From: Naegleria gruberi
Taxonomy: Eukaryota
Strand: one strand, 5' to 3'
DNA: 1,260 bases
NCBI GenBank assembly: GCA_000004985.1
Contig: GG739469.1
The notes beneath the pieces were generated by a model that made no database searches, was not told where the DNA came from, and saw nothing but the letters and a program-made list of their open reading frames with translations. The translations under genes and the position numbers were made by a program. Shown piece by piece: positions 1-1,260 of this stretch; the stretch's first letter is position 1; each line of letters starts with the position of its first letter.

Positions 1-183
1 AAATTGATCACAGGAACGCAAAACATCATTCACTTCATTTCCTTCAATGAATTCTACATTTGTATTATTATCAATAGAAAGATTAATTTGAACAAGATCG
101 TGCTGGGACAATGACAATATTGATTTTTGAATGGCCGAGCGAATAGATGGCAATTTGTGAAAGAACAGATCGTTTTGATTCAT
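1..183 (-). CDS. N-terminal fragment of a hypothetical protein (5' partial within window; continues beyond the left edge)
   Basis: I reverse-complemented 183..1 by hand. It reads ATG AAT CAA AAC GAT CTG TTC TTT CAC AAA TTG CCA ..., giving MNQNDLFFHKLPSIRSAIQKSILSLSQHDLVQINLSIDNNTNVEFIEGNEVNDVLRSCDQF (61 codons, no stop, open to position 1). The ATG at 183..181 is the first ATG after an in-frame TGA at 231..229. Its context is aacataaaaaaaATG, A-rich as is typical for nematode starts. The composition is mixed hydrophilic and protein-like, and the codon choices (GGA, CCA, CGT, GAA, ATT, CAA) fit an AT-rich eukaryote. I do not recognise a family. The LP..I..IL.L...DL pattern is only a vague F-box-like hint. 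The supplied ORF track appears to list only ORFs complete within the window, which would explain why this one is missing. Confidence 0.45.
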   Translation of the reverse strand, partial: MNQNDLFFHKLPSIRSAIQKSILSLSQHDLVQINLSIDNNTNVEFIEGNEVNDVLRSCDQF

Positions 184-364
184 TTTTTTTATGTTGTAAT
201 GGAAACTAGTTTCTTCTAACTTGAAATTTCACCTCCCATCCCAACAATAATAACCTTTGATCCAGTTTATATTAAGGGAGAAGGCTTTCCAATAAAAATT
301 TGAAAATACTAAACATTGTGAAGAAGAACAAATAACTCAAAGCAAGAACAAAAAATTGTGCAAA
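184..364. promoter_or_regulatory. Putative divergent intergenic/promoter spacer between the minus-strand ATG (183) and the plus-strand ATG (365)
   Basis: No credible ORF lies in this stretch. It holds a T8 run at 183-190 and a TATA-like TATATTAA at 268-275, about 90 bp upstream of ATG 365. CCAAT is at 289-293 and the 14-mer ATAAAAATTTGAAA at 292-305. AAGAACAAA occurs twice, at 324-332 and 344-352. A function as promoter is inferred, not shown. Confidence 0.3.
292..305. repeat. ATAAAAATTTGAAA 14-mer, copy 1
   Basis: Exact 14-bp direct repeat of 1132-1145. Each copy lies 76-100 bp upstream of a GGCGCCAAAA copy, in the same order and orientation. Confidence 0.4.
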
Positions 365-377
365 ATGGCGCCAAAAG
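365..377 (+). CDS. Candidate 13-nt first coding exon (ATG GCG CCA AAA G, M-A-P-K) ending at a canonical splice donor
   Basis: The start context is gcaaaATGg. AAG|GTAAAAcc at 375-384 is a good match to the AG|GTAAGT donor consensus. The exon overlaps the GGCGCCAAAA decamer. If it is not spliced, the ORF reads MAPKGKTARYLFKVSLPFSSFIFVTKNDKIFA* (30 aa, stop TGA at 455-457), which is not convincing either. Confidence 0.22.
368..377. repeat. GGCGCCAAAA decamer, copy 1 (minus strand TTTTGGCGCC = E2F-type TTTSGCGC consensus)
   Basis: This is an exact 10-mer, repeated at 1232-1241, and is the only strongly GC-rich decamer shared across the window. Copy 1 overlaps ATG 365 and copy 2 lies 6 nt after ATG 1224. 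Confidence 0.5.
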
Positions 378-474
378 GTAAAACCGCACGTTATCTATTT
401 AAAGTATCCCTTCCATTTTCAAGCTTCATTTTTGTGACGAAAAACGATAAAATTTTCGCTTGATTTTTTTCCAG
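378..474 (+). other. Candidate 97-nt intron (GTAAAA ... tttttttccag), nematode-type acceptor
   Basis: The donor GT is at 378-379. The acceptor tgatttttttccAG ends at 474, a T7 tract plus CAG that matches the TTTTCAG-type 3' splice consensus of Caenorhabditis-like genomes. The interval is AT-rich and contains a TATTTAAA-like element at 394-402. Confidence 0.25.
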
Positions 475-572
475 CCCCGAGCTTGCAAAGTGAGAGGACG
501 GCTTCTAATTTACTTTCTATTTCGATGCCTCAGTCTTACGCTTGTCCACCAGCTACAAACCTTTTTCAATAG
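475..572 (+). CDS. Candidate second exon of a micro-ORF; phase-1 continuation reads APSLQSERTASNLLSISMPQSYACPPATNLFQ* (stop TAG 570-572)
   Basis: This is the most GC-rich stretch of the window (475-560, about 45%). It is in frame with exon 365-377 (G + CC = GCC) and gives a 37-aa product MAPKAPSLQSERTASNLLSISMPQSYACPPATNLFQ. The peptide is not recognisable and has no clear domain. An alternative internal donor AAA|GTGAGA at 490-491 would end the exon at 489. AATAAA follows 12 nt after the stop, at 584-589. Confidence 0.15.
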
Positions 573-589: not shown

Positions 590-754
590 CAGAAGAAAAA
601 AACTCAATATTATCCAATGATGTTGTGATAAAGCAATTTATTGTTAGTTTTTGTTTTCATGAAGTAATAATAAGTTATTGCTCTAAATTGTTTTCTTGCT
701 TACTACCACCATCACGAATATTTTTTATTGTTGTGATGATCGAATTAGAAGTTG

Positions 755-835
755 AAATGGAAGCTGTCCTCCCGGCACTTTGCCAGCTAGCCGGTGGAAA
801 AAATTCTGATGGTGAAAAGTGGACAAAAAGTCTCC
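755..835. other. Local GC-rich island in AT-rich background containing a short inverted repeat (CCGGC 772-776 / GCCGG 790-794) and a GCTAGC palindrome (786-791)
   Basis: My count gives about 45% G+C here against about 30% in the flanks. The island overlaps the only protein-like half of track ORF 625..882 (…EAVLPALCQLAGGKNSDGEKWTKSLQRFWKGYF). It could be an exon fragment or a regulatory or structured element, and I cannot decide which from sequence alone. Confidence 0.2.
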
Positions 836-921
836 AGCGATTTTGGAAGGGATACTTTAGAATCAATTCAAATTCCAATTAAAAGTTACAATAAGAATGT
901 TTTAAGAGAAAAGGACAATTT

Positions 922-1064: not shown

Positions 1065-1131
1065 TAATAGAATTGAATTTGATGGTCTGAAACACAAGCA
1101 AAGACACAACAAAATCTTTCTAAATTAGTGG

Positions 1132-1145
1132 ATAAAAATTTGAAA
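1132..1145. repeat. ATAAAAATTTGAAA 14-mer, copy 2
   Basis: Exact repeat of 292-305. Confidence 0.4.
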
Positions 1146-1223: not shown

Positions 1224-1260
1224 ATGATGTCGGCGCCAAAAAGCAAACAGAAAAAAACCG
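1224..1260 (+). CDS. Possible 5' end of a plus-strand gene: ATG ATG TCG GCG CCA AAA AGC AAA CAG AAA AAA ACC (M M S A P K S K Q K K T...), 3' partial
   Basis: The frame is open to the window end, but only 12 codons are visible. It shares the GGCGCCAAAA decamer, and therefore the -APK- tripeptide, with the ATG at 365. The basic Lys-rich continuation looks like a nuclear or ribosomal-type N-terminus, but it is far too short to call. Confidence 0.2.
   Translation, partial: MMSAPKSKQKKT
1232..1241. repeat. GGCGCCAAAA decamer, copy 2 (minus strand CTTTTTGGCGCCGA contains TTTGGCGCC)
   Basis: Exact repeat of 368-377, in the same orientation. Confidence 0.5.

Follow-up and report, generated by a model that had tools for sequence, protein, structure and literature searches.

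Repeated words and other features of the window

The window, by which we mean the whole stretch of DNA analysed, has a length of 1260 nt and a GC content measured at 32.5%, in agreement with the 33% background given in the first-pass annotation. Two words occur in it twice, each as an exact match on the plus strand. The 14-mer ATAAAAATTTGAAA, whose core is AAAAATTTGAAA, is found at 292-305 and 1132-1145, and the 10-mer GGCGCCAAAA is found at 367-376 and 1232-1241. We thus recovered the two repeats in the same order and orientation at both sites, as the first-pass annotation had described them. It had placed the second 10-mer correctly and the first one at 368-377, one base too far to the right; likewise, the start-to-start spacing of 100 nt held for the second site, whereas the 76 nt given for the first site was measured as 75 nt. 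The 14-mer had been said to consist of A and T only, which is not the case, as it contains one G. The gaps that separate the 14-mer from the 10-mer are 61 nt at site 1 and 86 nt at site 2.

The first 10-mer overlaps the ATG at 365-367, with the first G of the 10-mer being the G of the ATG, and this ATG is located 60 nt downstream of the first 14-mer. The same copy of the 14-mer is 109 nt upstream of a minus-strand ATG at 183. At site 2, ATG1224 is located 79 nt downstream of the 14-mer, and the 10-mer begins 6 nt past the end of ATG1224 and 3 nt past ATG1227. These two places had been singled out as the ones with a plausible start context; the plus strand has 20 ATGs, so the choice was a subjective one.

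The window looks like AT-rich DNA, probably from a eukaryote, that is mostly, or essentially, non-coding. Its longest open stretches (97, 76, and 68 codons) have lengths within the range of mononucleotide shuffles, with P=0.08 for at least 97 codons and P=0.37 for at least 76 codons. Long ORFs were absent from all frames under the standard code as well as under tables 4, 6, 10, 15, and 25. The Pfam search found no domain in the window ORFs, the word-based protein searches made with the 61-aa left ORF and a 51-aa peptide of the foldback described below found no homologues, and an exact look-up of four window ORFs in a gene-position index gave no record.

Three open frames are of interest with respect to the repeated words. 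The ORF MAPKGKTARYLFKVSLPFSSFIFVTKNDKIFA (365..463, plus strand) has 32 codons and no Pfam match; the first 10-mer is read in it, in frame, as Ala-Pro-Lys. From codon 12 this ORF runs into a foldback of about 460 nt, and it is probably not a gene. The second frame, MMSAPKSKQKKT... (1224..1260, plus strand), starts at ATG 1224/1227, carries the second 10-mer in frame, and runs off the right end of the window. A TAA at 1197-1199 is in frame upstream of ATG1224, and 12 codons of the ATG1224 frame are visible. The third frame, MNQNDLFFHKLPSIRSAIQK... (MNQNDLFF...; 1..183, minus strand), has 61 codons, starts at an ATG at 183-181 that is preceded by an A-rich context, and runs off the left end. We found no homologue of this frame among about 15 billion proteins. 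The sole match to the 61-aa ORF in an exhaustive phmmer search, P0001, was rejected as an artefact, since its score sums ten weak matches to a repeat protein of 1396 aa. The minus-strand frame, whose length does not exceed chance, may be a divergent neighbouring gene, as a candidate only.

The foldback that begins 22 bases past the first 10-mer is the sole statistically strong repeat in the window (BLAST E=4.5e-9). It is an inverted duplication with a left arm at 398..527 (plus strand), a right arm at 738..861 (minus strand), and a spacer at 528-737. The arms are identical at 91 of 139 aligned positions (score 86 versus -9 +/- 9 in shuffles), their outer 16 nt match exactly (400-415/844-859), and the RNA fold of 395-865 has an energy of -143 kcal/mol (z=-8.5). 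The flanking sequences TTATCTATT (391-399) and GAATCAATT (860-868) are alike at 6 of 9 positions and, on this resemblance, could be a decayed target-site duplication. The foldback may be a MITE-like or foldback element that cuts across the ATG365 frame. Translation of the arms, at 462-526 on the minus strand and 739-806 on the plus strand, gives two similar peptides, IEIESKLEAVLS-LCKLGAGKK...WKGYFK and IELEVEMEAVLPALCQLAGGKN...WKGYFR, with a 3-nt indel. Mismatches are spread evenly over the codon positions (6/3/6), the minus-strand copy is interrupted by a TGA in frame and lacks an ATG, and neither a homologue nor a domain was found for the peptides; these frames are probably not coding. A 16-mer taken from the foldback terminus had 11 chance matches in viral contigs, with no extended similarity. 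The foldback is given here as context; it lies outside the pairs of repeated words and is unrelated to them.

We also observed a perfect 9-nt tandem duplication at 1202-1219 (AACCTATCA x2), directly upstream of ATG1224, which looks like a slippage-type duplication in non-coding sequence. The Rfam search of the window gave nothing above threshold; a match to CRISPR-DR6 at 885-936 scored 24.3 bits versus a gathering score of 39, had a 32-nt insertion, and, not being part of a repeat array, was judged a chance match. The window contains no tRNA genes that we could find, and sites resembling sigma-70 promoters or terminators are about as frequent in it as chance gives. The sequence had no blastn match among phages and plasmids, an exact 27-mer from it had no match in prokaryote genomes, viral contigs, or metagenome contigs, and a viral scan found no relatives of the window.

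Possible E2F-type sites or chance recurrence of the words

The reverse complement of the 10-mer, TTTTGGCGCC, contains TTTGGCGC, which is read on the minus strand at 375-368 in copy 1 and at 1240-1233 in copy 2. The E2F-type word is GGCGCCAAA/TTTGGCGCC; the E2F consensus has been given as TTTSSCGC (PMC2891812) and as TTSSCGC (PMC5716687). The word TTTGGCGC is an exact instance of the E2F/DP consensus TTTSSCGC. The window has 2 matches to TTTSSCGC (minus strand, 368-375 and 1233-1240) versus 0.08 expected, and 2 matches were reached in 2 of 200 shuffles; both numbers have to be read with the fact that we became aware of the E2F match only once the repeat was already flagged, when many known motifs could have matched.

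An E2F/DP site has been described as a 12-bp sequence with a symmetric [C/G]GCGC[G/C] core and with T-rich and A-rich flanks (PMC3734150). In Cryptosporidium parvum, a protist with 30% GC, the E2F-like motif DTTGSCGCCH / TGGCGCCA is the most over-represented upstream motif (PMC3734150). Copy 1 matches DTTGSCGCCH at 10 of 10 positions and copy 2 at 9 of 10. Both sites have the GGCGCC core and the AAAA flank, with AT or TC in place of TTT on the other (left) side; of the 12-bp palindrome, each site has one half only. The likeness to E2F/DP binding sites, the C. parvum motif included, extends to TTTGGCGC, the symmetric GGCGCC core, the A/T-rich flank, and the placement in AT-rich non-coding DNA near possible gene starts. 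There are differences as well: the likeness here is a sequence match alone, with half of the palindrome, and one site would lie within an open frame, provided that ATG1224 really is a start.

One thing favours the 10-mer as a putative cis-regulatory element, namely this match to the E2F consensus. The reading that we put first, tentatively and at somewhat less than even chances, is that the window carries two E2F-type sites in non-coding DNA that would be constrained as DNA words. Recurrence of the 14-mer is near chance in this reading, and any link between the 14-mer and the two sites would be hypothetical. Two promoter-proximal sites of the E2F type would then be the likeliest functional reading of the repeat. 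Site 1 would sit between ATG365 and the minus-strand ORF (ATG 183), in a gap of 181 nt, and site 2 would sit at the right edge of the window. Each site would recruit an E2F/DP dimer, and a transcription unit close by would thereby be turned on or off with proliferation; binding or function of the sites, and the presence of E2F/DP in the host, are inferred. Against this reading, both sites are positioned in frame just 3' of ATGs, a placement that a coding explanation would predict as well.

Ranked close behind these E2F-type sites is pure coincidence, i.e., two matches of short words that are unrelated to each other, lie in AT-rich non-coding DNA of low complexity, and have neither a common origin nor a function, which we hold to be a quite possible account, just below the first. 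Several results favour it. In a BLAST self-comparison of the window the 14-mer alone had E=0.25, and the 10-mer region did not appear in the output at E<=1. An exact direct repeat of at least 14 nt occurred in 1.9-5% of dinucleotide, block-wise, and Markov-3 nulls and in 3 of the 136 windows taken from real viral DNA. Exact 10-mer repeats by themselves are ordinary, with 2-4 expected per window and 4-5 observed. The 14-mer has sharp edges with no similarity in its flanks, the spacers that separate the words show no more similarity than shuffled sequence (P=0.33), and parts of the 14-mer are widespread in the literature (289 papers), in unrelated sequences and in primers. The hexamer TTTGAA, which the 14-mer contains, was seen 6 times in the window versus 5.6 expected. 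The bipartite pattern ATAAAAATTTGAAAN{60,90}GGCGCCAAAA had a single match in 596 Gb of prokaryote genomes, an unrelated one in a coding sequence of a Planctomycete MAG with 52% GC, and had no match in the viral or metagenome collections. The single recurrence of the A/T-rich 14-mer is close to chance level.

What speaks against coincidence is the joint event, as well as the exact E2F consensus in the 10-mer with its 2 matches. A 14-mer together with a collinear repeat of at least 10 nt within 150 nt was found in just 0.13-0.9% of nulls and in 1 of 136 real viral windows. The pairing of the 14-mer with the 10-mer is therefore uncommon, roughly 1 window per 100-400, which is suggestive and not decisive; this rarity is weakened by the fact that the feature was picked out of a scan by eye and post hoc. 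Also counted against coincidence is a third exact 10-mer, TTATGTTGTA (189-198 and 1160-1169), which joins the same two regions and is not collinear with the other words. Its match reaches 13 of 15 positions over 189-203 / 1160-1174, and its first copy is 5 nt from the minus-strand ATG at 183. At least three such exact repeats in one pair of 200 x 200 nt regions were present in 2.4-11% of nulls. With p of about 0.002-0.01 per window and with many windows scanned, coincidence remains a serious rival of the E2F-type sites.

Possible duplication, gene starts, and composite promoter elements

The first-pass annotation had offered two further origins for the paired words, the remnant of a small segmental duplication and the promoters of two paralogous or co-regulated genes. 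For the former, the window could hold a local duplication relic of the 5' end of a gene (the promoter-proximal part with the first codons), in which 292-385 would be a decayed, truncated copy of 1132-1260 or would have been patched by gene conversion. We consider such a relic improbable. The identical order and orientation of the repeats fit it, as does the match around the 10-mer, which widens to 14 of 16 nt and is followed, past a 9-nt gap that keeps the frame, by a further AAAACCG match at the far end of the window. The window has other local duplications too, the inverted one at 398-527/738-861 and the 9-nt tandem at 1202-1219. A decayed duplication of a promoter and first exon resembles what is seen here in having two islands of identity that are collinear, equally oriented, and about 850 nt apart. 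It differs in that here no residual similarity is left between or around the islands. Local alignment of 260-400 with 1100-1260 yielded the 14-mer alone, bearing out the earlier remark that very little else aligns, and the bases flanking the two copies of the 14-mer had nothing in common. This absence of extended similarity, including the spacers of 61 and 86 nt that are not above shuffles, argues against a decayed duplication. If a spacer had decayed to random sequence, then 24 of 24 positions left intact in the two words would be extremely unlikely without selection, and the ORF at copy 1 has just 32 codons. The segmental-duplication remnant is thus disfavoured, and no duplicated segment has its ends at the word pairs; nor are they established as gene starts.

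It is comparably unlikely, in our estimate, that the sites belong to two paralogous coding genes, perhaps with introns, which would share a basic N-terminal peptide (M)APK[G/S]K..T, with the 10-mer being coding and the 14-mer a shared upstream element. The frame reads ATG GCG CCA AAA GGT AAA ACC.. at site 1 and ATG ATG TCG GCG CCA AAA AGC AAA CAG AAA AAA ACC.. at site 2. Both copies of the 10-mer follow an ATG in frame and are read as Ala-Pro-Lys, the ACC G match returns when a gap of exactly 9 nt (3 codons) is allowed, and both ATGs have an A at -3. Read directly, AAAAG|GTAAAA (373-383) and TTTTTTTCCAG (464-474) resemble a splice donor and acceptor. Against paralogous genes stands the length of what is encoded: ATG365 gives 32 codons, the spliced reading (AAAAG|GTAAAA ... 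TTTTTTTCCAG|) stops after about 36, no ORF exceeds the chance length, neither homologues nor domains were found, and the second frame is visible for 12 codons only. ATG365 leads neither into an ORF longer than chance nor into a recognisable protein, as the start of a paralogous gene would.

There is no synonymous divergence either. The residues shared by the two sites use identical codons (GCG CCA AAA ... AAA ... ACC), and for Ala, AT-rich genomes usually make little use of GCG. Identical codons, GCG included, within a neighbourhood that cannot be aligned are a sign of DNA-level sharing or of chance, not of conservation at the protein level. The GC-rich 10-mer is constrained, if at all, at the level of DNA. 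With a 32-codon ORF at ATG365, no ORF beyond chance, and no homologue, the premise of a gene start is weak.

Finally, the 14-mer, with its CHR-type TTTGAA, and the E2F-type 10-mer might make up one bipartite promoter module, maintained by selection with a flexible spacing of 60-90 nt. This is a candidate to which we give a low probability; if true, the module would mark co-regulated (e.g., proliferation-linked) transcription units in an AT-rich eukaryote. We obtained no result in this analysis that ties the 14-mer functionally to the 10-mer, a search of the literature for the exact words found nothing specific, and pairing at variable distances (61 and 86 nt) is not evidence for a physical bipartite element. 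TTTGAA is the canonical CHR hexamer, and the CDE/CHR and E2F/CLE tandems are cell-cycle promoter elements bound by DREAM/MuvB, with a 4-nt spacer as their defining property (PMC5716687). The likeness to such tandems consists of TTTGAA in the 14-mer and an E2F-type site in the 10-mer; the difference is in the gaps, 61 and 86 nt here in place of 4 nt. TTTGAA is 62 and 87 nt from the GGCGCC word, and we rejected a CDE/CHR or E2F/CLE tandem on spacing. Past a 4-nt spacer from the E2F-like sites, the plus strand has the hexamers AAAACC and AAACAG, and the minus strand has TTGCAC and ATCATG. The CHR hexamer carries little weight because TTTGAA occurs at chance rate and the 4-nt spacing is absent.

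Other known elements fit less well. Yeast ribosome-biogenesis promoters combine RRPE (AAAWTTTT) with PAC (GATGAG core). An RRPE-like AAAAATTT is present, and on the minus strand both 14-mers contain AAATTTTT; the yeast RRPE/PAC pair was rejected, as GATGAG is nowhere in the window. The early promoter of the NCLDV or poxvirus type is AAAATTGA, whereas the 14-mer has AAAATTTGA, with one T extra, and 1 kb of non-coding sequence is out of keeping with such genomes.

The sequence AGTGGATAA at 1127-1135 (reverse complement TTATCCACT) matches the DnaA-box consensus, TTATCCACA, at 8 of 9 positions. The GC skew of the window switches sign near 600. A DnaA box or an origin of replication was rejected, because TTATCCAC adjoins just one of the 14-mers, the second, and we recognised no gene in the flanks; AGTGGATAA and the GC skew are not enough to suggest a replication origin.

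Significance of the repeated words

The repeats are genuine, and chance would produce them with modestly low probability; they do not belong to a longer homology. The 'ATG-proximal' framing under which they had been reported is backed by no coding evidence. The useful outcome is a negative one: the locus is neither a duplicated gene start nor a decayed segmental duplication. The finding is ordinary either way, an element of a known kind or a coincidence. At worst, short words coincide here. At best, the window would add, in an AT-rich intergenic region, two further E2F-type sites that fit the consensus; promoter elements of this kind are well known, and their abundance in AT-rich protists, Cryptosporidium among them, has already been described.
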